The notes under the pieces: model-generated
Databases searched by the model: none
What the model was told of the DNA's origin: nothing
Seen by the model: the letters and a program-made list of their open reading frames with translations, nothing else
Made by a program: the position numbers and the translations under genes
Part shown: piece after piece, positions 997 to 46,795 of the stretch
Layout: the number at the start of each line of letters is the position of its first letter
Numbering within the stretch: position 1 is the stretch's first letter
Origin: Lentisphaerota bacterium
Lineage (GTDB): Bacteria > Verrucomicrobiota > Kiritimatiellia > RFP12 > JAAYLN01
Direction of reading: 5' to 3'
DNA: 46,863 nt
Assembly (NCBI GenBank): GCA_012521875.1
Contig: JAAYLN010000019.1
Location: 1-46,863 of the forward strand

Positions 997-1008
997 GCCT
1001 GCCTTGTT

Positions 1009-1494
1009 GCGGGCGTTGCCCTGCGCTGGTATATCCCGCCCCTTCAGGGCTTTCATCAACTTTGTCGCGAGCCTTGTCGGTAACTTTGTCGAAAGCTAAA
1101 GATTAAGCTGGTGGAGTAAGCGTGCCGTTTAAGAGTGAGTTTAAGTGCGGCTGTTTTAAGTGGGTGCTTCGCGCTCACAACACCTTGTCCCCACACCTTG
1201 TCTCCACACTTTGTCTCTTTACGCTTCGTCTCCACACTTTGTCCCTACGCTTTGTCGAAAGCGAAAGAGAGCGCGCTGGAGTCTCAGTCTATTCTTTTCG
1301 TACTCAAGCCCCGGCACTGCCGATCCTGCCGGAACTGCCGGCGGAGGGCAAGCGTCGGCTTGCCCGCGCACCCTCGCAACCTCGGACGAGCAGACGCTCG
1401 TCCCTCCCGTGGCTGCGGCCTTGGCACTAAGTTTGGTGCCCCGCCGCGGCTAGCCGGGGGACGGCTTCGCCCCACCTGTGCTGGCGCGCCAGCA
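1009..1494 (+). repeat. Mosaic intergenic repeat block (modules a-b-c-d-f)
   Basis: Ordered modules: a, ggcgttgccctg..ctggtatat..ccccttcagggctttcat (1009-1056). b, TTTGTCG words (1058-1097). c, gattaagctggtggagtaagcgtgccgtttaagag..gggtgcttcgcgc (1101-1175). d, CTTGTC/TTTGTC words (1178-1262). f, hairpin chain ggcaagc-gtcg-gcttgcc, ggacgagc-agac-gctcgtcc, ggcac-taagtttg-gtgcc, gctagccggg..cttcgccccacctgtgctggcgcgc (1305-1494). The same modules recur at 5170, 13580, 17125, 27145, 37257 and 46241. Confidence 0.9.
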
Positions 1495-3651
1495 CTACCT
1501 GATCAGTATCAGCGTGCCGCCTGTTGGCAGTTGGTGGAAGCCGATATCGCAATGCCTGGTGTTGTGACTGCGGGGATTGCCGAAGAAATCGGTCTCGGCG
1601 GCCATCCAGGCCTGGTAGAGACCGGCGTCGCGGCAGGGGCTGTTCCGCTGCAGACGGAAGTCGCCGGATGCCGGATTCTTGAAACAGGGATCGTTGGTGA
1701 CGCTGTCGAAACCAAACACAACCGGAATGCAGCAGTTGAAGCAGTTGTTCGTGTAGCCGACCACGTTGTGGTCACGGCTCGCGGGATCGTCCACCCCCGC
1801 ATCGAAGTTGTCCCATACGATGCTGTTCACCAGCGAACCGGAGCGCACGGAGACGCCGCCGCATCCCTCCCTGGTCCCATGCGTGGCCGTTCCGGTGGCA
1901 TTGCTGACTACCGTGCAGTTGCGGACAGTACCACCTTCTACCAGCACACCACCGGCGCTCTTGGCCTTGTTGCCAATCACCAGCGAGTTCTCGAGAATGG
2001 CGGAACCCGAGACCACGATGCCGCCACCGCTCCCGGTGTAGGAGAAGGTCTGGTTGTTGACAATTATAGACTTGGAAACCCTGGCTCGCCAGCCCGTGAT
2101 CCACGCCCCGCCACCTGCCTGGTTAGCCAAACCCTGGCAATCAGTCACCTTGCCTTTGGTGAAGGTGCCGCCGTTGCCGTAGATGTAGAGGCCACCGCCA
2201 CGATTGTAGCCATTGGAAACGCAGACGCCTTCGACATAGGCATCGAGGCCATTGATCTCCAGTACCCTCCGGTTGCGGTTGGCATAGAAGCAGGTGGCGT
2301 CCATGCCCGCACCGATAAGCCGCTGTCCATCGCCGACAAATATCGTGCCGGTGATGCGGTAGCGCCCTTCGCCGACATGCAGCGTCACGCCCGGCCTGAG
2401 CACCCCGCTTACGGCCTCATTGATGTTGGAGGCCGCCGTGGCAGGCGTATCGTAGGGCCACTGGGCACCGGTGGAGTTGATGTTAACATAGGCCTCGGTG
2501 GGATAGACCGTGACGAAGCCGAGAGGCTCCTCACGCGTGTAGTCAACCCCGTCGTAATTCAGAACCAGCTTGACGCTGTGCCTGCCGACCCCGAAGGTCT
2601 GCTGGATGACGGTGCCCGTGCCCGCCGCCACGGATGAGCCGTCAAAGTACCAGGTGCAGGTACATTCCTCGATGGGGGCATTCTGCACGGTGGCGGTAAA
2701 GGTGAACTCGTATTCGCCGGCGACTTCATAGCAGTCCGCCACAATGCCGGGCGCCACCTTGGATACGCAGTATTCAATTGCGCCGATGTCAACCGTGTCG
2801 TTGAAGATGCGCGGCTGGCCGAGATAGTCCCTGGTCGAGACAACATGGTCGTTGCATCCCAGATCAATGCACATGGCGCTAGTGGCAGCGCTAAGCTTGT
2901 AGTACGGCAGGACATAGGGCGCAGAGGATTCTACCTGCGCGTTGGCCCCGATAGCCACCGTCGAGCAGCAGTTGCTGAAACTGGTGGCATCCGGACGCGT
3001 CGATCCGCCTTCGGATCTGAGGTTGTTTTCGCCGGACGTGGAAGTGTTGGCATAGGAGATTGTATTAAGGACATAGCCCGCATTGGCCGTCCGGTAGAGT
3101 CCCCCGCCGGAATATGCCTTATTGTCAGCTATCGTGCAGTTGACGACCTTGGCGTTTGCGATGCTCTTCGCCAGATAGACACCGCCGCCGATAGCGCCCG
3201 AGTTGTTGAGATTTCCGACTGCGTTGGAAATCACGAGGCAGTCCGCTAGCGTGCCGTAATCCATGTAAACACCAGCGCCTTTACCGGGGCCGACCGAGTT
3301 ACCGCAGTTCATGATGCAGGAATGTGTACAGAGCGCATTGTCCGAGGAGAGCCGCAACCCGCCGCCATCCGCCGAATTCGTTCCGGACTTGCTGGCGTTG
3401 ATGGTGCAGTTCGAGACCGTGCCGCCACCCCCGGCGATATAGATTCCGCCGCCCGTACGGCTAGCATAGCCACCGGTCATGAAGAGCCCGGCCACCAGAG
3501 CCTCGGCATGGCCGAGGTAGAAAAAGCGCCTGTAGCTGGCGGCCTTGACAATCGTTGCATCACGCTCTCCGGTGCCGATGATCTTGATCGCATCAACCAA
3601 GGCGTAGGAGTCGGAGAGCGTGTAGGTGCCGTTGGTGACGTAGATGGTGGA
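1495..3651 (-). CDS. C-terminal two thirds of the beta-helix / choice-of-anchor-Q-like surface protein (frameshifted fragment)
   Basis: In the frame of ORF 1495..3921, recognisable protein sequence starts at ..STIYVTNGTYTLSDSYALVDAIKIIGTGERD. It contains Gly/Asn-rich parallel beta-helix repeats (GGGIYI, GGGLRL, GGGVYL), PKD-like segments (CTWYFDGSS..GRHSVKLVL) and repeated NDPCF..P..GDFRL..SPC.DAG caps. The Pro/Arg-rich 5' extension 3658-3921 looks non-coding. Confidence 0.8.
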   Translation of the reverse strand, partial: STIYVTNGTYTLSDSYALVDAIKIIGTGERDATIVKAASYRRFFYLGHAEALVAGLFMTGGYASRTGGGIYIAGGGGTVSNCTINASKSGTNSADGGGLRLSSDNALCTHSCIMNCGNSVGPGKGAGVYMDYGTLADCLVISNAVGNLNNSGAIGGGVYLAKSIANAKVVNCTIADNKAYSGGGLYRTANAGYVLNTISYANTSTSGENNLRSEGGSTRPDATSFSNCCSTVAIGANAQVESSAPYVLPYYKLSAATSAMCIDLGCNDHVVSTRDYLGQPRIFNDTVDIGAIEYCVSKVAPGIVADCYEVAGEYEFTFTATVQNAPIEECTCTWYFDGSSVAAGTGTVIQQTFGVGRHSVKLVLNYDGVDYTREEPLGFVTVYPTEAYVNINSTGAQWPYDTPATAASNINEAVSGVLRPGVTLHVGEGRYRITGTIFVGDGQRLIGAGMDATCFYANRNRRVLEINGLDAYVEGVCVSNGYNRGGGLYIYGNGGTFTKGKVTDCQGLANQAGGGAWITGWRARVSKSIIVNNQTFSYTGSGGGIVVSGSAILENSLVIGNKAKSAGGVLVEGGTVRNCTVVSNATGTATHGTREGCGGVSVRSGSLVNSIVWDNFDAGVDDPASRDHNVVGYTNNCFNCCIPVVFGFDSVTNDPCFKNPASGDFRLQRNSPCRDAGLYQAWMAAETDFFGNPRSHNTRHCDIGFHQLPTGGTLILIR

Positions 3652-5020
3652 TGGTGGAGCCCTCGCCGGCCAGTGCAAGCGCCGCGTCAAGCGTCTGCGC
3701 GGCAGTCGCCGGTGAGGTGTATGGGGGAACCGGGTTGACGCTGTCGTCATCCACATACATGGGGCCGCTGCAACTGACGCGGATGGCATCCGGCAGCGTG
3801 CAGGTGAGGTTGGTGCCGTTGGCGAGCGCCACGCTGGCCGTGAGCGAGTAGGTGCCGAAACCGAAGGTGTGGGTAAACGAGGAACCGGTCTGCTCCAGTC
3901 CCTCCCAGGTGATGGTGGCACCGGTCAGATCGTAGCCGTTCGCCGTCAAGGTCACCGTCGCATCAAGCGCATCGCAGCCGCTATAGGCACTGGTTCTGAC
4001 ACCAAGGGCGTTCCTAGTGGCGTCGAAAGGCAGGTAGCCGAGGTCGCCGCCGTCCGTGCCGGCACCGATGCAGGGTGAACCCGGCATCAGCGAGTAGTCG
4101 CCGTTGACGGCGTCGGTGAAGCAGGGGTTGGCATTGACTGGATTGGTGCCGAACGCGCCGGTCGTGCAGAGATTGGTTACCAGGGCGCCGGCACCGATTG
4201 AGACGTTGGGGCGTCCGTCCGAAGAGTCGCGCAAGGCGACATTCCCCCACACGATCGTGTCCGTGACGATGCAGTTGGCACTGTCGGTGACATAGAGCGG
4301 GTAGTGCGAAACCGTATTCCCGGCGATGGTGCAGTTCTTCACCGTACCCTTCACGAGATAGACGACACCAAGCGTGTTGATACTATCGGCAAAATCCGAG
4401 CGATAGCAGCCGGTCACCAGCGAGTGTTCCAGCGTGCCGTTATTTATGTAAACGCCGACTGCATAATTGCCACCGGTCAGCCGCGTTGCGCAGTTCCTGA
4501 TAATGCAGCCGGTGATGCGTCCACCGCCGTTGATGTAGGCGCCGACTCCGTAAATAGCGCTGTTACCCGTGACATAGGCGGCCTCGATGATGCAGTTGGT
4601 CAGCGTGCCGCCGGAGGACATCCACACGCTACCACCCTTATTGTTGGTACAGCCGCCGCGGTAGACGCGCACGCCTGCCACAGTCGCGCCGGAGTTGCTG
4701 AATTTAAAGAGCGGTGAAGTGGCAGTCCTTTGCGCTCCATCCAGTGTGACATCCTCCGGGTTGCCGGAGAAGCCACGCACCGTGATGGCACGGGTCAAAT
4801 CAATGGTTGCCATAATATCATACGTGCCATTGGTGATGACCACCTCGTCGCCATCGTTTGTCGCCGCCGCCACGCCTTCGGCAACGGTCTTGAAGGCATT
4901 GCTCCAGGCGGAACCATCGCCCGAAGCCGCAACGCTTCCATCAACGTAATACGTGGTGGCCGCCTGCGCATTGATCGTGATTGCCACCGCCAGAACAAGA
5001 AACGCTCTAAGTTTATGCAT
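3593..5020 (-). CDS. N-terminal third of the same beta-helix surface protein (ends prematurely after the frameshift)
   Basis: ATG at 5020 gives MHKLRAFLVLAVAITINAQA, which is signal-peptide-like. It is followed by TTYYVDGS..ITNGTYDI, beta-helix repeats, a NANPCFTD..GDYSL.PGSPCIGAG cap and a PKD-like segment. After ..LALAGEGSTI (3650) the frame degenerates into HHLRHQRHLHALRLLRLG*. Confidence 0.8.
   Translation of the reverse strand: MHKLRAFLVLAVAITINAQAATTYYVDGSVAASGDGSAWSNAFKTVAEGVAAATNDGDEVVITNGTYDIMATIDLTRAITVRGFSGNPEDVTLDGAQRTATSPLFKFSNSGATVAGVRVYRGGCTNNKGGSVWMSSGGTLTNCIIEAAYVTGNSAIYGVGAYINGGGRITGCIIRNCATRLTGGNYAVGVYINNGTLEHSLVTGCYRSDFADSINTLGVVYLVKGTVKNCTIAGNTVSHYPLYVTDSANCIVTDTIVWGNVALRDSSDGRPNVSIGAGALVTNLCTTGAFGTNPVNANPCFTDAVNGDYSLMPGSPCIGAGTDGGDLGYLPFDATRNALGVRTSAYSGCDALDATVTLTANGYDLTGATITWEGLEQTGSSFTHTFGFGTYSLTASVALANGTNLTCTLPDAIRVSCSGPMYVDDDSVNPVPPYTSPATAAQTLDAALALAGEGSTIHHLRHQRHLHALRLLRLG
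3644..3657. repeat. Perfect 7-bp tandem duplication (ATGGTGG)x2 that causes the frameshift
   Basis: The plus strand reads gtag ATGGTGG ATGGTGG agcc. On the coding strand this is CCACCAT CCACCAT. Confidence 0.95.
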
Positions 5021-5169
5021 GGCTCCGTCTTCCGTTTGAAAGTGGCGGTTCAGGCAATGGTCATGCATGCGCGCCCGCATGGCGCGCAACCCAGTGGCAG
5101 CAATAACCATCAAACCGCCATTATGGGTTAAGGTAACAGATCGATAAGATAGCGTCAACAGCCGGTTTG

Positions 5170-5660
<491 letters not shown>

Positions 5661-6200
5661 GTGCGCCCAGCATGGGCATGTACTAACCAACTGAAAGGAG
5701 TTGATCGTAAGCAGTGACAGCAAACGTAGCGAACGGCAAGGCCGCGACCGCAAGGGAGCGAGCTGAAGGAAGCCGCTAGCAAAGGCACGGCCGCAGGAAC
5801 ACGAACAGGCAGCGAGGCAGTGTGCGGGCGATGAGTGTGCGAGAGAACACGAAATCCGACAGTCACCGAAAGACGCACGGTGTAGAGCCTGGCGGCGCGG
5901 GCCGGTAGTACATGCACCTTACCTGGGGAGGCCCCGGACGTGAGAGCGCCCGGGGAGTCAGCAGAAGCCATAGTAGCGTGGACGCCCGCCGAAAGGCGGG
6001 AGGAGCGAAGGGCCGAAGGACAACGAGAGTGCGATCGGTCAACCGTCTTGGAAGGACGGCGGGGAGAGCCGTGAAACAAGGGGGCGCAACAACTGCGGTA
6101 GCCACCCCCGCGGCGCGGCGGACGGTGCCGGTGGATTCCGGCACCCGTCCACAAGCGCGCGGCTCCAGTCCGACTTCCAGCGACAAGGAGACAGCAGAAG

Positions 6201-7475
6201 ATGCACAATGAAGAGAACACGGGAACGGCAACACTGGAGACGGTGCTGTCGAGCGAGAACATGCGGGAGGCCTGGCGTTCGGTGAAAGCCAACGACGGAG
6301 CCCCCGGTGTCGACGGACTGGATGCCAAGGCGACGCTGGAACACCTGCGGACGCACTGGGGCGGAATCCGTGCCAAGCTGCTGGCCGGGGAATACAAGCC
6401 CGGCGCGGTGCGTGCGGTGGACATCCCGAAGGCAAGCGGCGGCACGCGCCGTCTCGGCATCCCCAACGTACAGGACAGGCTGATTCAACAGGCCATCCAC
6501 CGGACACTGTCCCCGCTCTGGGAGGCGGAGTTCAGCGGGCACAGCCACGGCTTCAGGCCGGGGCGCAGCGCGCACGACGCCATCCGCGAGGCGCAAGGAT
6601 ACATCCGCGAAGGGAAGGTGTGGATAATCAACATCGACCTGAAAGGGTTCTTCGATGAGGTGAGCCACGACATTCTGATGCGGCTGGTCGCGCTGAAGGT
6701 GCGGGACAAGCGGCTGCTGCGGCTGATCGGCAGATACCTGCGGGCAGCGATGCAGTTCCCCGACCGGAGCAGGGAGAAGCGCACGAAGGGCACGCCGCAG
6801 GGCGGCCCGCTGTCGCCGCTCCTTGCCAACATCTACCTCGACCCGCTGGACAAGGAGATGGAGGCGCGCGGACTCTCGTTCGTGCGCTATGCGGACGACA
6901 TAGCGGTGTTCGCCTCAAGCGAGCGCTCCGCCGCCCGCATCCTTAAGCGCCTTATAAAGTGGATCGAGAAGCACCTCAAAATCCCCGTGAACCGGGACAA
7001 GAGCGGAAGCGGGCCGGTGGACGAGAGCGCGCTGCTGGGGTTCCGGCTTGGCCGGGACGGCGGCGTGTACGTCTCGCCGAAATCCATAGCGGAGCTCAAG
7101 ACCGAGGTGCGCCGGTTGTGGGACGCGCGGCAGAACCGGACGGAGGAGGGACTGGCCGCCCAATGGGGCAAGTTCATCAATGGCTGGTGGGAATACTTCA
7201 AAATCGCGGACAGCGGGTACGAACCGCGCAACCTGAGCGGCTGGATACGCCGCCACATGCGCAAGTGCTTCTGGCTGCGGTGGAGAACGCCGAAAGGGAG
7301 ACTCAACGCCCTCGCACGCCACGGAGTGAAGGGGCGCTCCCTTGGAATCGCCTACACCGGACTGGGCGCGTGGCGCGTTGCTCGATCACACGCGATGCAA
7401 CACGCGCTGAAGAACTCGACACTCAACGCGATGGGGTTGTCCATGCCGTGGGACTTCGCGAGGGCACATGTGTGA
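6201..7475 (+). CDS. Group II intron reverse transcriptase/maturase (no endonuclease domain)
   Basis: 424 aa. The N-terminus SENMREAWRSVKANDGAPGVDG is typical of intron-encoded proteins. RT motifs include PKASGGTRRLGIP, GTPQGGPLSPLLANIYL and the catalytic YADDIAVF. A maturase-like C-terminus follows (WINGWWEYF, RRHMRKCFW), with no HNH/En extension. AAGGAG lies 9 nt upstream of the ATG. Confidence 0.95.
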   Translation: MHNEENTGTATLETVLSSENMREAWRSVKANDGAPGVDGLDAKATLEHLRTHWGGIRAKLLAGEYKPGAVRAVDIPKASGGTRRLGIPNVQDRLIQQAIHRTLSPLWEAEFSGHSHGFRPGRSAHDAIREAQGYIREGKVWIINIDLKGFFDEVSHDILMRLVALKVRDKRLLRLIGRYLRAAMQFPDRSREKRTKGTPQGGPLSPLLANIYLDPLDKEMEARGLSFVRYADDIAVFASSERSAARILKRLIKWIEKHLKIPVNRDKSGSGPVDESALLGFRLGRDGGVYVSPKSIAELKTEVRRLWDARQNRTEEGLAAQWGKFINGWWEYFKIADSGYEPRNLSGWIRRHMRKCFWLRWRTPKGRLNALARHGVKGRSLGIAYTGLGAWRVARSHAMQHALKNSTLNAMGLSMPWDFARAHV

Positions 7476-7490
7476 CCCTTGCCGTGTCCA

Positions 7491-7565
7491 ACCGCCGGAT
7501 GCGGATCCGCATGTCCGGTGGTGTGGAAGGGGCGCTGGGCGCAATCCCATGCGCCCCCATCCGAT
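7491..7565 (+). ncRNA. Intron domain V and VI region
   Basis: ACCGCCGGA-UGCG-GAUC-CGCA-UG-UCCGGUGGU folds as a 9-bp lower stem containing a G-U pair, a 2-nt bulge, a 4-bp upper stem and a tetraloop. This is the standard domain V shape, with a CGC triad as in class C introns. It is followed by a GGGGCGC..GCGCCCC stem (domain VI-like) and the 3' AU. Confidence 0.6.
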
Positions 7566-7800
7566 CCGTGGCTGCGGCCTTGGCGCCAAGTTTGGTGCCC
7601 CGCGTGCGGCTAGCCCGACTTCGCCCCATCTCTGCTGGCGCTCTCGCGGAAACAGCCACCAGTGTGGCGCGGACATTCCTGTCTGCGCGGGCAGGCAGGA
7701 ATGCCTGCCCCACACTACCACGCTCCATCGCTGCGGCTAGCCGGAACGGCTTCGCCCCACCTCTGCTGGCGCTCTCGCGGAAACAGCCCAGCCACTCGCC
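7566..7800 (+). repeat. 3' continuation of the interrupted module f, plus a palindrome module and a second module-f tail
   Basis: Sequence in order: ccgtggctgcggccttggcgccaagtttggtgcc..gctagcc..cttcgccccatctctgctggcgc; then cagtgtggcgcggacattcctgtctgcgcgggcaggcaggaatgcctgccccacactaccacgctccatcgc (7660-7733); then gcggctagccggaacggcttcgccccacctctgctggcgc again. Confidence 0.85.
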
Positions 7801-7926
7801 ACCAACCCGACCATCGAGGCTGGTTTTCGACAACCTCGGCATTCTCCGCAACATGTACGGGCGGCACGCATGCCGCCCCCGCCGCCCCGGCGGCGGCACA
7901 CTGCCTACTGCAACTGCTCCCCCGCA

Positions 7927-8694
7927 TCAATACCACACCTGCCACAGGAACAGCCCCTGTGGCGGTGCGGTGGGCACGCGGGCGGTGCGGGGAGCCTTTT
8001 CGGCCAGTAGTTGCGCCACCGCCCCGGGCGGTTCGGCCCCCTGCCCTATGCGCATCAGCAGCCCCACCATGCTCCGCACCTGACGGTACAGAAACCCGCT
8101 CCCCTTGACGCGGAACTCGACGCGCTTGCCGTGGCGCCTGAACTCGCACTCCATTATCGTGCGCACGGTGCTCTCGACCGCGCGCTGGGGATTGGCCATG
8201 AAGGCCACGAAATCATGCTCGCCTACAAAGTGCGCCGCCGCCTCCTGCAGCGCATCCATATCCAGCGGCCGCCGCACGTGCAGCGCGTAGAGGCGCTTGT
8301 GCGGCGGCATCAGGTCGTCGTTCCAGACGAAGTAGCGGTACTCCTTGGCCACCGCGCTGCGGCGCGCATGGAATTGCGCATTGACCACGCGCGCGCCCAC
8401 GATGCGGATGTCGCCCGGAAGGCGCGCATTGAGCGCCAGCCGCAAGGACCGGGGTGTTATGCGCGTGCCGATATCGACATGCGCCACCTGTCCCATGGCA
8501 TGCACGCCCTGGTCGGTACGGCCGCTGCCGTGAACCTTGCAGGGATGCCCGACCACCGCCTCCATCCTGGATTCCAGCATCTCCTGGATGGTAAGGTGGT
8601 CGGGCTGTACCTGCCAGCCGGCATACGCGGTTCCGTCGTAGGCTATCTTGAGACGGAAGCGGCGCGTGGGAGGGCTAGAGGTATTTGGCGGCAT
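7927..8694 (-). CDS. truA: tRNA pseudouridine(38-40) synthase TruA
   Basis: 255 aa. Contains RLKIAYDGTAYAGWQVQP and the catalytic-Asp motif GSGRTDQGVHAMGQVAHVD. Confidence 0.9.
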   Translation of the reverse strand: MPPNTSSPPTRRFRLKIAYDGTAYAGWQVQPDHLTIQEMLESRMEAVVGHPCKVHGSGRTDQGVHAMGQVAHVDIGTRITPRSLRLALNARLPGDIRIVGARVVNAQFHARRSAVAKEYRYFVWNDDLMPPHKRLYALHVRRPLDMDALQEAAAHFVGEHDFVAFMANPQRAVESTVRTIMECEFRRHGKRVEFRVKGSGFLYRQVRSMVGLLMRIGQGAEPPGAVAQLLAEKAPRTARVPTAPPQGLFLWQVWY

Positions 8695-9760
8695 CGGGAC
8701 GGCGCGCGATCCGTTGAACCATCTGCTTCACTTCCTGCGCGCGTTCGCGGGGGCAGATCAGCGTGGCGTTATCCGACTGGATGACCACCAGATCATGCAC
8801 GCCGATGAGCGCCGTCAGGCGGTTTTCGGAGACGACGATATTGCCACCGCTGTCGATCGACTCGCTGGAGCCGATGACCACGTTGTTCTTCTCGTCGGCG
8901 GCAAAGTGTCCGGCCACCGCTGGCCATGTGCCGACATCGTCCCAGCCGAAGGCCCCATAGGCCATGATGATGTTGTCGGCCTTCTCCATGACGGCGTAGT
9001 CTATGGAGACTTTGACCAGGTTGGCGTAGGCGACCTCCAGCAGCGCCTGGAGATCGGCGCTTGACTGGGCGGAGGCGGGAATGTCGATCAGCACCTGCAG
9101 TTCGGGCACATGCTCGGCGATCGCCGCCTGCATCGTGCGCACATGCCAGATGAACATGCCGGCGTTCCAGCAGTAGTTGCCGCTGGCGACATACTGGGCG
9201 GCGCGCTGGGCGTCGGGCTTCTCGACGAAGCGTTTGGCCTTGTTGAAGCGCGTGGCGGTACGGAACTCGAGCGCCTCGCCGGCCTCGATATAGCCGAAGC
9301 CGGTCGCGGGATAGGACGGCGGGATGCCGATGGTCACGATATGCTCCCCCTGCGCGGCGGCGGTGAAGCTGTCGCGCAGTGTCTGGCGGAAGGTCTCGAT
9401 ATCGGACATGAGCTGGTCGGCAGTGAGAATGGCCGCCACGCCCTCCGGATCGCGCGCGGCGACAAGGCCGCAGGCCAGCGCGCAGGCGGCGGCGGTGTCG
9501 CGGGGCACCGGCTCGCCGATCAGGTTCTCCGGCGGCAGTTGGCGCGCGACATCGGCGGTCGCATCGAGCAGGTCTTCCGCCGTGATGATCAGCGTCCGCT
9601 CGGGCGGCACCACGCCCTCGAGGCGTTCGAGCGCCAGTGCGATCAGCGGACGGCCGCCGAAGAGCGAGATGAACTGCTTGGGACGCGCCGCCGTGCTAAG
9701 GGGCCAGAAACGCTCGCCACGGCCACCGGCGAGGATGATTGCGTAGTTGTGTGGGTTCAT
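8675..9760 (-). CDS. Mannose-1-phosphate guanylyltransferase (nucleotidyltransferase only, no cupin/PMI domain)
   Basis: MNPHNYAIILAGGRGERFWPLST is the sugar-nucleotidyltransferase G-loop, and the length is about 361 aa. I chose the ATG at 9760, which overlaps the coaX stop as ATGA. The ORF track extends to 9790. Confidence 0.8.
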   Translation of the reverse strand: MNPHNYAIILAGGRGERFWPLSTAARPKQFISLFGGRPLIALALERLEGVVPPERTLIITAEDLLDATADVARQLPPENLIGEPVPRDTAAACALACGLVAARDPEGVAAILTADQLMSDIETFRQTLRDSFTAAAQGEHIVTIGIPPSYPATGFGYIEAGEALEFRTATRFNKAKRFVEKPDAQRAAQYVASGNYCWNAGMFIWHVRTMQAAIAEHVPELQVLIDIPASAQSSADLQALLEVAYANLVKVSIDYAVMEKADNIIMAYGAFGWDDVGTWPAVAGHFAADEKNNVVIGSSESIDSGGNIVVSENRLTALIGVHDLVVIQSDNATLICPRERAQEVKQMVQRIARRPDAAKYL

Positions 9761-10527
9761 TGCTTTTCCTTCTGGTAGTCGTAAAGCCATCCGATCCCGT
9801 AGAGCGTTAGATCGGGATCGATGACGAAGTTCATGTTGAGCGGGTTGGCAAAGCGCGCGGCGAAGCCCCCCGTGGCAATCAGACGCGGCTCGCCGTCTTC
9901 AATCAGCGGCAGGAGCCGTGTCACCGTCTCGCGTAGTGTACCACAAAAGGCCGCCTCAATGCCAAACCGCATCGCCCCCTGGGTATCCTTGGGCAGGCGC
10001 GGGGCCGGCCGCAGCCACCATTTGACGTCGGGCAGCAGCGCCGTGTAGTCGTAGAGCGCGCGCGCCATGATGTCGGGCCCCGGTCCGATGACACCCGTGA
10101 AGAAGCGCCGGTCGGACGAGATCAGGTCGTAGGTCACAGCCGTGCCGATGTCGATGACCAGTGCCGGTGCCCCGTAGCGTGCTAGGGCTCCCGCGATGTC
10201 GGCCAGGCGGTCGGCACCGGTGGTTTCGGGGTGCCTGTAGTCGAGCTTCATCGGCAGGCGGATGGTGTGCGTCAGCAGCAGGGTGTCGAGTCCCGTCTCG
10301 CGCTTGACGAGCCGCTTCCACGCGTCGTTGGCCGCCGGCACGACCGAGGCCAGCATGGCACCATCGAAACGCCGCCGTCCCTCCACGACACGCCGCACGG
10401 CCGCCGCGCAGCGCACAGCATCGTTCTTGATGCCACCGCTGATCGAGGTCGCGCGCGTGATTCGTCCGTTGGCATAGCAAGCGACGGTCGTCGAGCTGTT
10501 TCCCGCATCAATGACAAGTACGGCCAT
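9757..10527 (-). CDS. coaX: Type III pantothenate kinase
   Basis: 256 aa. The N-terminus is MAVLVIDAGNSSTTVA (ASKHA phosphate-1 motif). DIGTAVTYD and ATGGFA motifs are typical of CoaX. Confidence 0.85.
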   Translation of the reverse strand: MAVLVIDAGNSSTTVACYANGRITRATSISGGIKNDAVRCAAAVRRVVEGRRRFDGAMLASVVPAANDAWKRLVKRETGLDTLLLTHTIRLPMKLDYRHPETTGADRLADIAGALARYGAPALVIDIGTAVTYDLISSDRRFFTGVIGPGPDIMARALYDYTALLPDVKWWLRPAPRLPKDTQGAMRFGIEAAFCGTLRETVTRLLPLIEDGEPRLIATGGFAARFANPLNMNFVIDPDLTLYGIGWLYDYQKEKQ

Positions 10528-10543
10528 ACGTTCCTCTCATTTC

Positions 10544-11416
10544 TCAAACCACCGACCACTCCAGCGCGAGGTCGACCGCCGGTGCCGAATGGGTCAGGCA
10601 GCCGAGCGACAGGGCGTCGACGCCCGTCGCCGCGACATCGCGCGCCCGTTCTAGAGTGATGCCGCCCGAGGCCTCGGTGAGCGATATGCCCTTGGCCAGC
10701 TTCACACACTCGGCCATCATTTCGCACGACATGTTGTCGAGCAGCACCCACTCAGGCCGGGCGCGCAGGGCGCTCTGCAGCTCCTGGATGGTCTCGACCT
10801 CGACCTCGACCACCAGGTTTGGGAAGCGCTCGCGGGCCGCCTGTACCGCGAGGTCGAGGCGGTCGGGATCGTTGCCGGCCCAGAGGCGGCGGTGGTTGTC
10901 CTTCATCAGGATGCGGTCGTAGAGCGCAAACCGGTGATTGACCCCGCCGCCGCAACGCACGCTGTACTTCTCGAAGAGGCGCAGTCCCGGCGTGGTCTTG
11001 CGCGTATCGAGCACCTGTGTGCCGAACTCCCTGACCGCCGCCACGAAGCGGCGCGTCAGGGTGGCGATGCCGCACATGCGCTGCATGAAGTTGAGCGCGG
11101 TACGCTCGCCGGTGAGGATGGCGGCGGCCGGTCCGCGGAAACGCAGGATGGGGCCGCCGATCGGCGCCTCGCAGCCATCCGGCACGATGGTCTCGCATAC
11201 AATTGATGGATCGATCCGTTTCAGCACGGCGGCAGCCACACCGCCACCCGCCACGCGGCACGCCTGGCGGGCGAGGATCTCGCCGGTCGCCTGGATGCCG
11301 GGATCGACCAGCGCTATGGTTGTGGCGTCGCCGGGACCGACATCCTCCTCGATGGCGCGGTCAATCGCCTCGTGTACACGCGGATCGGCAAGCAGATCAG
11401 GCAGCAGCATCAGCAA
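10544..11416 (-). CDS. nadC: Nicotinate-nucleotide pyrophosphorylase (carboxylating) / quinolinate phosphoribosyltransferase
   Basis: 290 aa. Contains GERTALNFMQRMCGIATLT, LDTRKTTPGLR, KDNH and SGGIT motifs. Confidence 0.9.
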   Translation of the reverse strand: MLMLLPDLLADPRVHEAIDRAIEEDVGPGDATTIALVDPGIQATGEILARQACRVAGGGVAAAVLKRIDPSIVCETIVPDGCEAPIGGPILRFRGPAAAILTGERTALNFMQRMCGIATLTRRFVAAVREFGTQVLDTRKTTPGLRLFEKYSVRCGGGVNHRFALYDRILMKDNHRRLWAGNDPDRLDLAVQAARERFPNLVVEVEVETIQELQSALRARPEWVLLDNMSCEMMAECVKLAKGISLTEASGGITLERARDVAATGVDALSLGCLTHSAPAVDLALEWSVV

Positions 11417-12621: not shown

Positions 12622-13430
12622 AGCACGTCTCCGAAGTTACCCTCAGACGACTGGAAGAGGGCCAGTCCAGCTACCAGCACACATACGGACACCGCCGCCG
12701 AGATGGCAAAACCACCCGCCGCCGGTGCCAGTCCCAGGAAAAAGGCGCGGTAGGCGCCCAGGATGCCGGTCATCGGATTGAGATAGACCAGCCACGGGGC
12801 TAAGTCGTAGGCGGCCAGGAACTCGATCTGGCGCGACGCCGGGTAGAAGACCGGCGTCAGGAAGAACCAGGCCATCGAGGCCACGCCGATGATGTGCTCC
12901 GTATCGCGGAAGAAGACGTTGGAGGTGGCGATCAGCAGCGCCAGGCCGAGGCAGAGCGCCGTCTGCGCCAGCAGGGCCAGCGGCAGCCAGCCGACCGGGC
13001 CGAAGGCCGGACGGGTGAAGGCCAGATAGGCCAGCAGCACCAGCAGTGTCAGCAGGAAGTTGAAGGCGTTGGCCAGCACCATCGCCAGCGGCAGCAGCAG
13101 CCTCGGGAAGCGGGCCTTCTTGATGAGGTTGGAGTTGCCCGTGATGGCGTGCAGGGCATCGTTGAAGCAGGTCGCGGTATACTGCCATACGATGATGCCC
13201 GTGATCAGGTAGGGCATGAAGTCGAACGTCTCCCCGCCGATCATGCTGGTGCGGATGCCCAGTATGCCGGCGAAGATGGCATAGATGGCGATGAAGCAGA
13301 TGGGCGTCAGCAGCGACCAGAAGAAGCCCAGCACCGAATTCTTGTAACGGATCTTGACGTTGCGGACGACCAGCATCAGCAACAGCTCGTGCCGTTCAAG
13401 CCATGATGTACCCGAAAAGGACATGGTCAT
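12618..13430 (-). CDS. ABC-2 type polysaccharide exporter permease (Wzm/TagG-like)
   Basis: 270 aa with about six hydrophobic segments. The N-terminal LLMLVVRNVKIRYKNSVLGFFWSLL is the typical ABC-2 permease signature. It is first in the operon. Confidence 0.85.
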   Translation of the reverse strand: MTMSFSGTSWLERHELLLMLVVRNVKIRYKNSVLGFFWSLLTPICFIAIYAIFAGILGIRTSMIGGETFDFMPYLITGIIVWQYTATCFNDALHAITGNSNLIKKARFPRLLLPLAMVLANAFNFLLTLLVLLAYLAFTRPAFGPVGWLPLALLAQTALCLGLALLIATSNVFFRDTEHIIGVASMAWFFLTPVFYPASRQIEFLAAYDLAPWLVYLNPMTGILGAYRAFFLGLAPAAGGFAISAAVSVCVLVAGLALFQSSEGNFGDVL

Positions 13431-13435
13431 ATTAG

Positions 13436-13465: not shown

Positions 13466-13497
13466 AAAACAAGGGCGTGTTGGAAGGGCGAGAAACA

Positions 13498-16372: not shown

Positions 16373-16373
16373 C

Positions 16374-28106: not shown

Positions 28107-28113
28107 TGCGCCG

Positions 28114-37062: not shown

Positions 37063-37256
37063 TCTGTTCTCTCTCGCATGTCCTGGCCCATCTGTCCGAA
37101 ACAGAAAGCCATCCAGTCCCCTCAAGCTTGCAAAAAGCGATCATGAACTTACAAAACCATAAAGCATCCAGACCTGTGCGGCAATCCTATTCCCTGCAAT
37201 CGGTTAGCCACAGGGGGCGTGCGGAGGGCTCACGAAAGGTGGGCGGTGCGGCTCCC

Positions 37257-37949
37257 CCACTTTGTCGCAAGCTTTGTCGGTAACTTTGTCGCCTTCGTCG
37301 AACGTGGAAGATTAAGCTGGTGGAGTAAGCGTGCCGTTGAAGAGTGAGTTTAAGTGCGGAGTTTAAGTGGGTGCTCCGCTCCAACACTTTGTCTCCACAC
37401 CTTGTCCCCACGCTTGGTCGGCTACGCTTCGTCTCCACACTTTGTCCCTACGCTTTGTCGAAAGCAACAGGAGAGCTGATGGGTGGCTTTTCGTCCTCGT
37501 CCTCGTCCTCGTCCTCGTTCTCGAGCCCCGGTACTGCCGGTACTGCCGGTACTGCCGACGGGTGGCGACAGGTATCGACAGGTGGCGACAGGATCGATGG
37601 CCAGCGACAAATGCCGCCCAGAGTGGCGCGGACATTCCTGTCTGCGCGCGTCCACGAGGGCAGACAGGAATGTCTGCCCCACACTATCACGCTCCATCGC
37701 AGCGGCTAGCCGGGACGGCGTCGCCCCACCTGTGCTGGCGCGCCTTTGCGGAAGCACACCAAACACTCGACCCCCATCGACCACAGCCACCCCCGGCGAC
37801 CCCCGTCGAGGCTGGCTGTCGACGGTGCCGACAAGCTATGACAAACGGGGCTTGCTATCGACGGGGCGACACTGCCTACTGCCTACTGCCTACTGCCCCT
37901 GCCTACTGCTACTCCCCCACCCTTCCTGCCTTCCTGATTTCCTGATTTG
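37257..37949 (+). repeat. Mosaic intergenic repeat block (b-c-d-(CGTCCT)n-f'-palindrome-f tail-word runs)
   Basis: Modules in order: b (37257-37304); c (37310-37380); d (37382-37465); (tcgtcc)x5; gagccccggtactgccggtactgccggtactgccg; ggtggcgacaggtatcgacaggtggcgacagg; the palindrome module (37619-37700); gcggctagccgggacggcgtcgccccacctgtgctggcgcgcc; (ctactgc)n; ccttcctgccttcctgatttcctgatttg. Confidence 0.9.
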
Positions 37950-37953
37950 AAAA

Positions 37954-38716
37954 ACCAGTCGCAGCCACCGCACCGCGCCTGTTTCCGCGCACAGCACCGC
38001 CCAATAACAAATCTAAAATCTCCCCTCCCACATCCCTCCCACCGCCAAAATCATGGCAATCCTGAAATCCTGTCAAAATTACCAGTCGCCGCCACCGCAC
38101 CGCGCCTGCTTCCGCGCCAATCCGCGACATCCGTAGCTAAAAAACCAGTCGCCGCCACCGCACCGCGCCTGTTTCCGTGCGCAGCCCCCCCCTCCGCCAC
38201 GCGCCAAAACCAGAACCCTCCCCGGCATTACCGCCAACCAAAACAATCATGCAATCCTGAAATCCTGTCAAAAATACCAGTCGCAGCCACCGCACCGCGC
38301 CTGTTTCCGCGCGCAGCACCACCAATCACAAATCACAAATCGCAAATCTAAAATTCCCCCTCCCCGCGCACCGCCAAAATCATGGCAATCCTGAAATCCT
38401 GTCAAAAATACCAGTCGCAGCCACCGCACCGCGCCTGACCCAGCGCAAATCCGCGAAATCCGTAGCTAAAACACCAGTCGCCGCCACCGCATCGTGCCTG
38501 CTTCAGCGCGCAGCTCCCCCCCACTCACAAATCGCAAATCTAAAATTCCCGCGCCTCTGCGCCTCCGTGCCTCCGTGAGAGACTTCCCCGCAGCCACCGC
38601 ACCGCGCCTGCCTCAGCGCGCAGCTCCCCAATCACAGTCTAAAATCACAAATCTAAAATTCCCGCACCTCCGTGCCTCCGTGCCTCCGTGAGGGACTCCC
38701 CCGCCGCCACCGCGGG
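37954..38716 (+). repeat. Higher-order tandem array of a 28-nt unit ACCAGTCGC(A/C)GCCACCGCACCGCGCCTG (six full copies, two partial); not a CRISPR
   Basis: Full copies start at 37954, 38081, 38144, 38276, 38410 and 38473. Truncated copies lie at 38589 and about 38700. Spacings alternate between about 63 and about 127-134 nt. The inter-unit segments are themselves repeated (ccgccaaaatcatggcaatcctgaaatcctgtcaaaa; aatccgcgacatccgtagctaaaa; cacaaatcgcaaatctaaaattccc; ctccgtgcctccgtgag). Confidence 0.9.
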
Positions 38717-38718
38717 GT

Positions 38719-38929
38719 GCGAGTCAACTTGGTTGAATCGCACAGAATCCGGTATCCAGAATATTGCAAGGCAGCAATTTGAGTGTTTTGGCGTCCATTC
38801 AGGATGTGTGTCCCAATTGCATGGACACAAAAAGGGAAGCAAAAGGAGGCGCTTTTTCATTCTGAATTCTGGATTCTGGATTCTGGATTCTGGATTCTGG
38901 GTGCGCATCCACTATTGTGGCGCGCACCC
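38719..38929 (-). repeat. Hairpin-bounded element B, a related copy of element A in the opposite orientation
   Basis: The H2-like hairpin is gcgagtcaac-ttg-gttgaatcgc (38719-38741). The H1-like hairpin is gggtgcgc-atccactattgtggc-gcgcaccc (38899-38929). Internal words are cagaatccggtatccagaat and (attctgg)n. The core is partly alignable to the core of element A. Confidence 0.8.
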
Positions 38930-38956
38930 CGCACCGCGCCGCGCTGCAACTGCCGT

Positions 38957-38985
38957 TTGACACAATCAGCGAAATCCTCCATAGT
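38957..38985 (+). promoter_or_regulatory. Candidate promoter TTGACA-17nt-CATAGT upstream of the VTC/DUF4956/CotH operon
   Basis: The sequence reads ttgaca caatcagcgaaatcctc catagt. It lies 33 to 81 nt upstream of the two candidate ATGs (39018, 39066). Confidence 0.25.
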
Positions 38986-39065
38986 AATCAGTTCCGTCCG
39001 GTCTGGGCTCGGGCGGAATGACAAGTGTTTCATCTAGCCGCCCGCACCGTGGGCTCCATAACCGA

Positions 39066-43544: not shown

Positions 43545-43552
43545 AGGGGACA

Positions 43553-43928
43553 GGGGGCAGCAACCGAAAGGTAGGGCGAGCCGTCCCCGTCACGCCGCTA
43601 CGCGGTGTGACCGGCGAGCCGCGCACCGGCTTTGTACCGCCACCCCCGCCCATTCCGCCACCTATCCGCCATTGCGGGAACTGCCCCGGAGTGGCGCGGA
43701 CATTCCTGTCTGCGCACGTCCACGAGGGCAGACAGGAATGTCTGCCCCACACTAGTCTGGGACACCACCAACCGTCCCATCTCTAGCTTTCGACAAAGCT
43801 TAGAGACAAAGTGAAGAGACGAAGTGTATCCGACAAAGTGTGGAGACAATGTGCGAGGGCAAAGTGTTCGAGCGAAGCACAACACAATCACAAATCACAA
43901 ATCACAAATCACAAATCTAAAATTCCCC
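43553..43928 (+). repeat. Mosaic intergenic repeat block
   Basis: Modules in order: ggtagggcgagccgtccccgtcacgccgctacgcggtgtgaccggcgagccgc (43570-43624); the palindrome module (43688-43753); module d in reverse orientation (43786-43880); (cacaaat)x4-ctaaaattcccc (43885-43928). Confidence 0.9.
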
Positions 43929-43979
43929 AAAGCCCCATTCCTCATTGCAACCTTTCGGCAACCCCGCTAACATATCCCC

Positions 43980-46229: not shown

Positions 46230-46240
46230 GGGGCGGATCC

Positions 46241-46795
46241 CCACTTTGTCGCGGGCTTTGTCGGTAACTTTGTCGAAAGACTCGATAGAGTCGATGGATT
46301 CGATGGATTCGAATGATTCGATTCGCTCGACCACCCCCACCTCGCGACGCCGTCGCCACTGCCCCTGCCTCCTGTCTCCTGTCTCCTGTCCCCCGCCTGT
46401 ACCGAACCTCCCCACCCGCAGCCCCCGCACAAGCTCGCGGTACAGCAAACGGAAGGTAGGGCGAGCCGTCCCCGTCACGCCGCTACGCGGTGTGACCGGC
46501 GAGCCGCACACAGGTGATGAACCGCCAAGACGCCAAGGCCGCCAAGGAGTGCCGCAGTGATGGAGCGATGGAGCGATGGAGCGAAAAAGCGCCAACGGCG
46601 CGCTCTGTCGGACAACAGAGAGACGGCTATGTGTAAAGATTATCCCCGGCCGGAGTACCGCCTTCAGGCGGAAGTGGTTCAGGGGCTTCAGCCCCGCTCC
46701 CATGCCCCCTTTTCCCAAAGGAAAAAGGGCTTTGCGGGCCTGAAGGCCCTTATTGACTTCCGGCTGAAGCCGGCACTCCGACGCGACTGCGACCC
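46241..46795 (+). repeat. Mosaic intergenic repeat block
   Basis: Modules in order: module b (46241-46279), 12 nt after the larC stop; cgatggattcgatggattcgaatgattcgattcg words; cctgtctcctgtctcctgtc words; module ggtagggcgagccgtcc..aaccgccaagacgccaaggccgccaagg (46456-46547); (gatggagc)x3; the uninterrupted hairpin chain (46644-46795). Confidence 0.9.

Follow-up and report, generated by a model that had tools for sequence, protein, structure and literature searches.

Ordered mosaic repeat arrays in the long intergenic regions of a Kiritimatiellia genome

What fills the long intergenic regions of this genome, and why are they so much alike? In the window, i.e. the whole stretch of 46,863 nucleotides analysed here, a preliminary description had noted about 7.9 kb of gene-free DNA, every long region of which was said to consist almost entirely of recurrent hairpin and short-word modules. 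With intergenic regions defined by a GC3-based gene map, cross-checked against Pfam, we find ten of them (997-1494, 5159-5660, 7566-7926, 13431-14392, 16373-17495, 21848-22017, 27105-28113, 37126-39017, 43545-43979 and 46230-46863), which sum to 7,586 nt with an intron left out, close to the first estimate. The recurrence of the modules is confirmed by self-BLAST, by copy counts and by independent assemblies: 54% of the intergenic bases belong to sequence that recurs within the window at a distance of more than 200 nt, as opposed to 0.18% of the remaining, mostly coding, bases. Since only 54% recur there, both "every" long region and "almost all" were overstatements for the window alone; local tandem arrays raise the repeat content above this figure. 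The word CYTTGTC occurs 65 times as compared to 8.8 +/- 2.9 in shuffled sequences. The counts given earlier for modules b (7 copies), c (7) and d (7-8) were recovered, as were all the listed tandem words at their places, while of the four reported copies of module g three are full and the fourth is only partial.

The sequence of the window is 99.7-99.98% identical in independent ENA, JGI, NCBI and Logan assemblies, so an assembly artefact is ruled out. The same modules are found at at least 88 other, non-syntenic loci, which together with the agreement of the assemblies refutes the notion of a local segmental duplication or artefact limited to this locus; we found no point in its favour and give it practically no probability.

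The hairpin modules, i.e. hp1, hp2, h, f, g, the two small hairpins of module AL1 and a chain of hairpins with TGAAG loops, are GC-rich. Hairpins hp1 and hp2 and each unit of h consist of an 8-bp stem with a tetraloop and contain no unpaired GTAG; CGTC is present but lies within the stems. Module h is a doublet of two inverted 20-nt palindromic units, its subfamilies are distinguished by a compensatory pair, and the copy at 7660-7717 folds at -42.6 kcal/mol (z = -6.2). Modules f and g are inverted partners that carry GGTAGG at the outer end and bracket 210-250 nt as inverted repeats. The hairpin chain at 1345-1494 has a folding z of -3.2 and the hairpin of inverted 13-nt arrays at 27947-28108 one of -8.7, whereas c and c+d fold no better than shuffled sequences.

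The word segments (b, c, d, e, i and many others) are unstructured and make up about half of each island. Word arrays are built from 6-13-nt units iterated in tandem, with sharp peaks of word spacing at 13 and 12 nt; d consists of 13-nt CYTTGTC words, e of CCGGNACTG words and g2 of CGCCAAGA words. Large indels among 99.9%-identical strains comprise whole 13-nt units only, e.g. the unit at 14341-14353 is missing from two other assemblies and that at 28061-28073 from L018, i.e. word arrays gain and lose whole units between strains. The core of b is a 33-nt triple iteron, three CTTTGTCG at 12-nt spacing; over 53 copies nearly all of its positions are at least 95% invariant, and it has sharp edges. 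It is 94-100% identical in MAGs of Lentisphaerota (Victivallales, Lentisphaeria), Kiritimatiellota (Kiritimatiellia) and Verrucomicrobiota (Verrucomicrobia), and in other PVC MAGs b takes the form of palindromes or inverted triple-iteron pairs. Such identity across three PVC phyla, together with the sharp edges, argues for a sequence-specific constraint on b, for which a purely neutral reading does not account.

The modules are arranged in islands. The first (1008-1494, plus strand) is a complete composite unit that fills the gap between two convergent genes and consists of AL1 (1008-1056), b (1059-1098), c (1101-1175), d (1180-1262), e (1298-1341), hp1 (1346-1368), hp2 (1384-1420) and f (1446-1489). 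A composite unit without b (5168-5660, plus strand) contains an AL1-like segment (5168-5213), c (5317-5389), d (5390-5487), (CTCGTC)5.7 (5532-5565), e (5550-5600), hp1 (5607-5629) and hp2 (5638-5660) and is cut by the intron at 5660/5661; its continuation (7566-7800, plus strand) holds the remainder of hp2/f (7566-7649), a long hairpin h (7660-7717) and f (7733-7772). The island at 13496-14363, between divergent genes, carries on the plus strand (CAGGGTT)5.4 (13496-13533), b (13581-13626), (CACGGAGG)n (13640-13671), g (13812-13872), g2 (13879-13904), e (13952-13996), hp1 (13998-14019), hp2 (14027-14063), f (14090-14131) and half of h (14152-14175), and on the minus strand c (14208-14292) and d (14296-14363). 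Upstream of an MmeI-type gene, the plus-strand island 16451-17397 comprises a partial g with g2 (16451-16511), the TTCAG/TGAAG-loop hairpin chain (16540-16660), a long-form AL1 (17060-17184), b (17187-17232), c (17274-17346) and d (17347-17397).

Two further regions lie between convergent genes. One consists of two heptamer arrays in inverted orientation, (GAATCCA)3.6 and (GATTCTG)4.7, at 21886-22000; the other (27147-28108) has two copies of b (27147-27184 and 27418-27459), c (27625-27697), (TTCGTCCCA)3 (27719-27746), a second c (27760-27832), d (27834-27916) and a terminal long hairpin in which (ACACTTAGTCTCC)n (27947-28012) is inverted with respect to (GACTAAGCGTAGG)n (28033-28108). The largest island (37259-38900, plus strand) contains b (37259-37302), c (37310-37382), d (37383-37465), e (37491-37557), (CGACAGGT)n (37556-37597), h (37618-37686), f (37702-37743), seven copies of module i in tandem units of 113-134 nt (37929-38720) and (ATTCTGG)6 (38859-38900). 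The island 43570-43923 has g (43570-43622) and h (43686-43754) on the plus strand, inverted d words (43786-43868) on the minus strand, and (AATCACA)4.6 (43886-43923). The last one (46243-46863, plus strand) consists of b (46243-46279), TCGAWKGAT words (46272-46325), (CCTGTCT)n (46364-46398), g (46455-46507), g2 (46521-46547), (GATGGAGC)3.2 (46559-46584), a hairpin chain (46640-46780) and the start of a long-form AL1 (46820-46863) that is cut by the end of the window. The seven copies of b start at 1059, 13585, 17187, 27147, 27420, 37259 and 46243.

The order b to c to d to (CTCGTC)n to f, previously reported for four places, is complete at two of them (1058-1494 and 37257-37750); b is absent from the unit at 5316-5660, which resumes past the intron at 7566, and the unit at 17184-17400 is truncated past d. 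At 27418-27916 the order is partly kept, as had been said. Outside the window, the modules were found in digester metagenomes, where 115 stretches fall into 88 clusters, none of them syntenic with the window, and in one Kiritimatiellia MAG (L011, L016). The order in the metagenome loci is AL1, b, c, d, e, hp1/hp2 or h, and f: about 171 adjacencies are consistent with it and about 9 are reversed (b to c 48 vs. 2, c to d 44 vs. 4, AL1 to b 17 vs. 0, d to e 11 vs. 0), and neighbouring modules are co-oriented in 225 cases as opposed to 15. Thus neither confinement to this locus nor random order, the two outcomes that were to speak against an organised mosaic, is seen, and the likeness to BIME/REP-type mosaics, in which hairpins and other motifs follow a conserved order, is supported. 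The "syntax", however, is better understood as the outcome of colinear descent, in which a master arrangement of about 0.5-1.3 kb was copied block by block: blocks of 130-685 nt align at 84-92% between unrelated loci (e.g. 16692-17346 matches a block of the non-syntenic locus L074 with 84.5% identity). AL1 has three alternative successors, i.e. mosaic joints, and the truncation points of the units are variable. The copies within the window genome are fairly diverged (64-92% identity for c), so that no recent burst of copying has taken place. The taxonomic distribution is patchy: in relatives with 50-55% protein identity the intergenic regions are compact and free of modules, and many Kiritimatiellia have none of the modules.

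One of the hairpins is occupied by a mobile element. A group II intron, running from GTGCG to CCGAT on the plus strand (5661-7565), is inserted between ...GCTCGTCCCTC and CCGTGGCTGCGG, and the uninterrupted counterpart of this site is the hp2/f junction at 1398-1422 and 14041-14063. The intron matches Rfam D1-D4-3 with 90.7 bits (5744-5916) and Intron_gpII with 38.2 bits (7490-7565), just below the cut-off of 40, and it encodes a reverse transcriptase/maturase of 424 aa (6201-7475, plus strand) with RVT_1 and GIIM domains only. As class C (IIC) we count introns whose protein lacks an endonuclease domain and which are inserted directly past a stem-loop with a 3-4-nt exon-binding match; both features are found here, and the intron is class-C-like by domain content and insertion site. 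Its relatives (69-82% identity) sit at about eight other distinct sites, each after a GC-rich hairpin plus CTC or CTA, and related introns occupy hp1-type hairpins. Class-C-type introns reportedly home to terminator-like stem-loops (Robart, Seo and Zimmerly 2007). Hairpins hp1 and hp2 are homing sites for a class-C-like intron, and the earlier suggestion of "landing pads for mobile elements" is directly supported in this one case.

We consider it rather probable that the long intergenic regions are arrays of lineage-specific, non-coding mosaic repeats comparable to the BIMEs of E. coli and the NIMEs of Neisseria, largely selfish or tolerated. The building blocks are of two kinds, REP/REPIN-like hairpin elements that fold in single-stranded nucleic acid and unstructured word segments that expand and contract through replication slippage. 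All go back to one colinear master (g, g2, hairpin chain, AL1, b, c, d, e, hp1, hp2 or h, f), multi-module blocks of which were copied between intergenic regions with deletions and alternative joints. Blocks persist only at the boundaries of transcription units; in the metagenome loci only 14 of 525 module matches (2.7%) fall inside genes, although 71% of this DNA is coding. Their orientation weakly follows the compositional strand asymmetry of the chromosome, not the direction of genes: relative to module orientation, the genes beside the modules have a negative residual GC skew in 35 of 46 contigs (p = 0.0004-0.0008, contigs being partly interdependent) and likewise in the window, and islands sharing a contig are co-oriented in 34 cases vs. 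17, but the skew association is small. Recombination or gene conversion among copies may account for the spread, as may, alone or in addition, a hairpin-dependent single-strand transposition in trans by a putative enzyme, and b may be the recognition site of some putative protein; such a system would be largely selfish or tolerated and not a designed regulatory syntax. In about 0.9 Mb of module-bearing loci we found no RAYT, IS200-type or other transposase, and tblastn with IS200 TnpA and E. coli RAYT queries (approximate sequences) gave nothing below E = 0.35. The genes that recur beside the modules are housekeeping genes. Target-site duplications and clean element ends, which along with terminal inverted repeats would mark a MITE, were not found among the module loci because modules abut other modules, and no pair of empty and filled sites was found.

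Could the arrays instead be the host's transcription punctuation, with hairpins as bidirectional terminators, insulators or stabilisers of mRNA 3' ends and word arrays as spacers? All ten islands of the window lie at transcription-unit boundaries and none inside tight operons, convergent flanks outnumber divergent ones 12 to 5 in the metagenome loci, and class-C-type introns, which reportedly home to terminator-like stem-loops, here use hp1 and hp2. However, the module hairpins have no T-runs: terminator-like sites (a GC-rich hairpin plus T-run) number 8 as opposed to 11.9 +/- 4.0 in shuffles (900-18000), none of them at module hairpins, and a simple consensus scan gave no excess of sigma-70-type promoters. 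Islands also lie between divergent genes (13431-14392, 37126-39017), unstructured words make up about half of each, and relatives of the same class do without modules. Furthermore, module orientation is independent of gene direction (upstream gene on the same strand 36, opposite 27; downstream gene 26 and 38). Punctuation as the main explanation therefore appears unlikely to us. Nor do we find a good case for a multi-copy non-coding RNA gene, in which AL1 would head a transcript extending over b, c and d as far as the hairpins of f. AL1 belongs to Rfam RF01687, Acido-Lenti-1 (45.2 bits at 17135-17179, gathering cut-off 37), with 18 further matches of 37.4-45.2 bits in 20 related loci and only 22.7 bits for the copy at 1008-1051; the authors of the family reported covariation between phyla (PMC2864571, supplement). 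AL1 also contains TGGTATAT, which may resemble an extended -10 element, and adjacent modules are co-oriented. Against this, no sigma-70-type promoter was called at AL1, its TATAT stretch is not conserved among the Rfam seed sequences, c and c+d fold no better than shuffled sequences, and the units have variable truncation points and alternative successors, so that we hold this reading to be very improbable.

A different possibility is that the arrays are strand-polar sites for a chromosomal protein (nucleoid-associated, segregation or translocase-guiding), with the b iterons and the 13-nt CYTTGTC arrays as the code. The near-invariant, sharp-edged b core, its identity among the MAGs of different PVC classes and the spacing peaks at 13 and 12 nt would fit, as would the link of orientation to GC skew rather than genes. 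Yet the polarity reaches only about 76%, the 12-13-nt spacing does not match the helical repeat, b is not polar in other PVC genomes because it occurs there as a palindrome, many Kiritimatiellia have no modules and no candidate protein is known. We regard it as quite improbable. Somewhat more open, although still doubtful, is a PVC-wide, replication-polar recognition code (b, 12-13-nt CYTTGTC arrays, GTAG hairpins) read by a putative ssDNA-acting enzyme or chromosomal protein, which would play the part that RAYT plays for REP, or Ssn for the Neisseria NTS repeat. If true, the modules would be more than tolerated junk, the arrays would be organised to serve recombination, repair or the handling of the chromosome, and Acido-Lenti-1 would be a DNA element, not an RNA element.

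We return to the mosaic-repeat reading and its known counterparts. Mosaic arrays of this type are not described for this bacterial group; nevertheless, described relatives exist, as one module is Acido-Lenti-1 and BIMEs and NIMEs are close analogues. Acido-Lenti-1 is filed in Rfam as an sRNA, and the co-occurrence of this motif with group II introns that was remarked on in 2010 is seen in the window too; here AL1 is one module of a dispersed mosaic repeat and not a stand-alone sRNA gene, and the range now includes Kiritimatiellia. The association exists because motif and intron reside in one repeat unit with hairpins at which the intron inserts, so that an orphan "sRNA" is re-read as a repeat module and its unexplained intron link is accounted for. 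The window also offers a natural case of repeat hairpins to which a class-C-like intron homes. With its near-invariant iteron, b offers a concrete bait for the putative protein that reads it, and the arrays explain assembly breaks at intergenic regions in these organisms.

Pneumococcal BOX elements are intergenic and consist of three modules, boxA-boxB(n)-boxC. As in the present arrays, the order of their modules is fixed while internal tandem modules vary in number, but the sequences are unrelated, there are more than 12 modules here, and BOX is not known to have a cross-phylum module. Cyanobacterial intergenic DNA is reported to contain STRR heptamer arrays and small dispersed repeats (Mazel 1990; Elhai 2008), and the tandem heptamer words and repeats nested in repeats are similar; the words are different, and here they are set in a fixed order with hairpin elements. 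The likeness to BIME/REP (E. coli and Pseudomonas, with GTAG- and CGTC-tagged REPs) lies in short (20-40 nt), numerous extragenic imperfect palindromes mixed with other motifs, between and not within transcription units, and in h, whose two 20-nt palindromic units are inverted as in a REPIN; the outer GGTAGG of f and g may correspond to the tag of GTAG-tagged REPs (PMC3733652). The units here are longer and far more diverse, however, the composite reaching 0.5-1.3 kb, with large unstructured word segments and no RAYT gene in the loci searched. In NIMEs (neisserial intergenic mosaic elements), dRS3 hairpins flank RS elements, and the arrays were proposed as recombination substrates and targets of a mobile-element recombinase (PMC1797815; PMC11893778); such arrays had not been seen outside Neisseria according to the paper of 2007. 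Both systems form long intergenic arrays of many 20-150-nt repeat families, punctuated by short hairpin-forming inverted repeats and variable between strains. Unlike NIMEs, the present arrays belong to a PVC bacterium, have no single separator motif and no dRS3 (ATTCCC-N8-GGGAAT gave 0 matches in the window with up to one mismatch), and show a far more fixed module order with prominent tandem 6-13-nt words. Mosaic arrays of such density and regularity had been treated as oddities known as BIME and NIME in a handful of proteobacteria. That Kiritimatiellia have an independent third system, more ordered than these and with modules across PVC phyla, suggests that this architecture arises repeatedly, and since digester metagenomes are full of these arrays, they provide a new, abundant data set on how such arrays spread.

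The window has a G+C content of about 63%, and its genes are of ordinary chromosomal kinds (pseudouridine synthase, pantothenate kinase, ABC transporter, NifS/NifU, PurH, ExbBD, SpoU methylase, LarC and others); the gene map, which is GC3-based, is consistent with these identifications and with how public assemblies call the genes. Judged by its protein relatives and by identical contigs, the organism belongs to the Kiritimatiellia of anaerobic digesters and wastewater. Operon genes abut or overlap, and all ten long junctions (170-1,892 nt) lie at a strand change or where apparently unrelated, non-abutting genes meet. The modules and tandem words listed in the preliminary description were all recovered in place by repeat search and TRF, and a consensus-based map gives seven copies each of b, c and i, seven to eight of d, five of f, three of g plus one partial, three of h plus one half, and three each of hp1 and hp2. 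Of the 7,586 intergenic bases, 54% recur in the window at a distance of over 200 nt, as opposed to 0.18% of the other 39,277 bases; "almost all" was too strong for the window alone. The heptamer CYTTGTC occurs 65 times, against 8.8 expected. An assembly artefact was rejected, as the ENA, JGI, NCBI and Logan assemblies of the region are 99.7-99.98% identical.

Two of the neighbouring gene regions deserve mention. A 988-aa MmeI-family type IIG restriction-modification enzyme is encoded directly downstream of a module island (17496-20462, + strand; MmeI_N, hel, Mtase, TRD and C domains by public annotation). On the - strand at 1495-5158 there are two large ORFs, 1495-3921 and 3593-5158, that overlap by about 330 nt and are called as 701 and 505 aa in some public assemblies and as 727 and 491 aa in others; either their start sites are uncertain, or there may be a frameshift.

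The islands contain hairpin elements and segments made of short words. AL1 is the Rfam family Acido-Lenti-1 (45.2 bits at 17135-17179, cut-off 37), with 18 further matches above the cut-off in 20 related loci; of the other modules, none has an Rfam match in the window (E <= 1) or in 136 kb of related loci. The family was described from 89 representatives in Acidobacteria and Lentisphaerae (PMC2864571 supplement). The reverse strand of AL1 (1011-1056, 17139-17184; also 1194-1823 of the comparison stretch L080) reads ATG AAA GCC CTG AAG GGG... (MKALKGR.IPAQGNALG), which ORF callers stretch into spurious proteins and which has neither a Shine-Dalgarno sequence nor a coding signal. Module h folds into a long hairpin (about 60 nt, z about -6) from two palindromic units of 20 nt in inverted orientation; what distinguishes its two subfamilies is a compensatory change in the unit on the right, GGCAG[G/A]CA...TG[C/T]CTGCC. 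The elements f and g form an inverted pair, each with GGTAGG at its outer end and g with a small nested hairpin; between them lies either h or the e-hp1-hp2 segment, and in a Victivallales MAG both halves are united as one hairpin. The elements hp1 and hp2 have 8-bp stems with tetraloops.

The word segments are b, c, d, e and i, with word spacing peaking at 13 nt (304 cases), 12 (132), 6 (69), 14 (65) and 9 (44). Word arrays also occur in inverted pairs that form long hairpins, e.g. at 27947-28108, where the variant word CTTAGTC is present in both arms (z = -8.7). A structured RNA in c or c+d was rejected, since folding (z about 0) is no better than that of shuffled sequences. The (GGGTTCA)5 array at 13496-13533 adjoins the start of an ABC-2 transporter operon and, having five G3 tracts with 4-nt loops, could form a G-quadruplex. 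The heptamers (AATCACA)4.6 at 43886-43917 (also 38320-38348) fit WATCACW, the heptad to which the omega repressor of inc18 plasmids binds; the fit is probably a coincidence, as the lexicon is rich in heptamers.

The module order claimed in the preliminary description holds well beyond the window. Among module pairs at most 150 nt apart in 88 representative loci, about 171 adjacencies follow the order and about 9 reverse it; the loci were chosen for having c, so that counts involving c are inflated; the order among the other modules is unaffected. Thus b precedes c in 48 cases and follows it in 2, c precedes d in 44 and follows it in 4, and no reversal accompanies AL1 to b (17) or d to e (11). 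For the other pairs only the consistent cases were counted: h1 to h2 (15), AL1 to c (7), h2 to f (6), e to h1 (5), e to hp1 (4), hp1 to hp2 (4), hp2 to f (3) and the wrap-around f to AL1 (5). Adjacent modules are co-oriented in 225 cases and not in 15. Combining the islands of the window yields a super-order of about 1.3 kb, namely g, g2, a chain of TGAAG-loop hairpins, a long AL1, b, c, d, e, hp1, hp2 (or h) and f. Unrelated loci share whole blocks of 130-685 nt alignable at 84-92%, and there are true alternative joints, with three different successors after AL1. Given this super-order, the block copies and the alternative joints, the "syntax" is best explained by a master arrangement from which the islands descend colinearly, modified by deletions, by internal expansion and by some recombination.

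According to the preliminary description, confinement to this locus would speak against an organised mosaic, and the modules turned out not to be so confined: a 20-nt core of c, scanned against metagenome contigs, matched in 115 stretches (658 kb) that fall into 88 clusters at 95% identity, none of them syntenic with the window. When species-representative genomes were scanned for the core of b, matches came from Victivallales, Lentisphaeria, Kiritimatiellia and Verrucomicrobia MAGs; one of them, a Kiritimatiellia MAG (stretches L011 and L016), shares many modules with the window, at other loci. Module matches are absent in those Kiritimatiellia whose DUF1570 protein is 50-55% identical to that of the window, and the intergenic regions of these relatives are compact (at most about 370 nt by public gene calls). 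The modules are therefore dispersed within one sub-lineage, and their distribution at a larger scale is patchy. A phage origin was rejected, as the core patterns of b and c have no match in IMG/VR. In a Victivallales MAG (L002, L004, L012, L013, L014) and a Verrucomicrobia MAG (L009), b is the centre of a palindrome inside a local lexicon of their own, which includes a GCGGGCTGTCACCCGC hairpin, inverted GATTAA/GATTAC hexamer arrays, CTGACTC heptamers and an f+g hairpin; judged from such sequences, comparable mosaic systems are suggested in other PVC phyla.

The 33-nt core of module b, ACTTTGTCGCGAGCTTTGTCGGTAACTTTGTCG, has three CTTTGTCG spaced at 12 nt and is at least 95% invariant at nearly all positions (53 copies), with an abrupt drop of conservation at either edge. 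In MAGs of three PVC phyla the core is 94-100% identical, usually as a palindrome or as two triple iterons in inverted orientation with a short spacer between them. The matches outside PVC (Ruminococcus, Kofleriaceae and a gammaproteobacterial MAG) were rejected as chance, since they lie in coding-like sequence and about one chance match is expected. Such conservation in a non-coding 33-mer would make b a recognition site for either a transposase or a host protein, and by this constraint some of the system, at the least, would be read in a sequence-specific manner.

A group II intron lies at 5661-7565 (GTGCG to CCGAT), with Rfam scores of 90.7 bits for D1-D4-3 and 38.2 bits for domains V/VI, the latter slightly below the cut-off of 40; its protein has RT and maturase domains only. 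Joining the intron flanks restores exactly the hp2/f junction that 1398-1422 and 14041-14063 show uninterrupted. At about eight other distinct sites, introns with proteins of 69-82% identity are always preceded by a GC-rich stem-loop and CTC/CTA, and several of the target hairpins are of the hp1 type (GGGCAAGCAGACGCTTGCCC). No further copies of the window's intron were found in module-bearing loci. The intron is class-C-like in behaviour, and the repeat hairpins are its landing pads; landing pads for mobile elements were one of the candidate functions in the preliminary description. This explains why Acido-Lenti-1 had been observed near group II introns in Lentisphaerae, an association that its authors left unexplained (PMC2864571 supplement). 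Two further occurrences were noted: in L164 (2209-5360) two intron reverse-transcriptase genes stand back to back on one contig, suggesting nested or tandem introns, and in L020 (2080-2700) a maturase remnant lies immediately downstream of a 75%-identical DUF1570 relative, a position occupied in the window by a 1-kb module island.

With regard to genes, only 14 of 525 module matches lie inside called genes, in DNA of which as much as 71% is coding. How c is oriented does not depend on the flanking genes (upstream gene on the same strand in 36 cases and on the opposite in 27, p = 0.31; downstream gene 26 and 38, respectively, p = 0.17). Flanks are convergent in 12 cases and divergent in 5, and a consensus scan found no excess of sigma-70-type promoters or T-run terminators. 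Nearly all modules of the window are on the + strand, regardless of gene direction, and islands sharing a contig are co-oriented in 34 cases as opposed to 17 (p = 0.024). Relative to module orientation, the coding-strand-corrected GC skew of flanking genes is negative in 35 of 46 contigs, with a mean of -0.024 (t-test p = 0.0008, Wilcoxon p = 0.0004; -0.025 in the window), a small effect in contigs that are not fully independent and in a lineage whose leading-strand sign is not established. A per-island polarity of about 76% would give the observed 2:1 co-orientation. These data point to a link between the modules and replication strand asymmetry, of the kind known from single-strand transposons and from other processes that depend on hairpins. 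Strand preference by folding energy was uninformative, its outcome being dominated by G/C content.

Among 99.9%-identical strains, indels longer than 2 nt involve only whole 13-nt units (14341-14353 is missing in two assemblies, 28061-28073 in one), and there is a GA dinucleotide indel within b. Other redundant loci showed no unit slippage beyond the two arrays of the window, and no suitable orthologous pairs were found for comparing empty and filled sites. In one assembly, substitutions cluster in a repeat (13710-13772), as if it had been converted by another copy or mixed up in assembly. A stretch from strain GCA_046128275.1 (L170; 1-1376 and 3617-3741 compared with the window at 25438 and 27677) has a background identical to the window, and departs from it inside module c at 27677. 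Upstream of its DUF1570 gene there is a module island exceeding 1.3 kb, whereas in the window purH lies there at a distance of 33 nt; either the repeats have undergone a real rearrangement or the contig is chimeric. The two differ by 1 mismatch in 573 intergenic nt and by 52 in 1,656 nt of gene, and this contrast was rejected as a sign of purifying selection on the intergenic DNA, as the gene mismatches lie in three recombination-like patches in an otherwise identical background. Public contig ends often fall within islands.

As to a mobilising enzyme, tblastn found no IS200/RAYT transposase in module-bearing loci, and clustering of 338 flanking proteins gave only housekeeping families as recurrent ones and no linked transposase. 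Inverted composites enclose an ABC ATPase gene and a short ORF, which we read as a putative HAD-type hydrolase. The AAA_14/DUF4143 ATPase is the only protein family that recurs in five distinct module-bearing loci (L074 439-1794 and four others); it is probably a common paralogous family.

The observations of the preliminary description were confirmed, and its interpretation was borne out in part. We propose a mosaic repeat system, largely selfish or tolerated, in which repeats are copied in blocks between the borders of transcription units and diversify by slippage and recombination, and in which the hairpins fold in single-stranded DNA. The islands might also serve as transcription punctuation, as binding arrays or as RNA genes; these functions are compatible with a selfish or tolerated system, and the readings are not mutually exclusive.

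It is instructive to compare this mosaic repeat system with known ones. By sequence it belongs to none of the NIMEs, BIME/REP/REPIN elements, BOX elements and cyanobacterial heptamer arrays: dRS3 is a feature of NIMEs and the window is without it, and REP/REPIN elements have their RAYT whereas none was found for these modules. The closest systems are nevertheless NIMEs (PMC1797815) and BIME/REP/REPIN elements (PMC3733652), BOX and the cyanobacterial heptamer arrays being looser parallels, and module h shares with REPINs the same architecture of inverted palindromic units.
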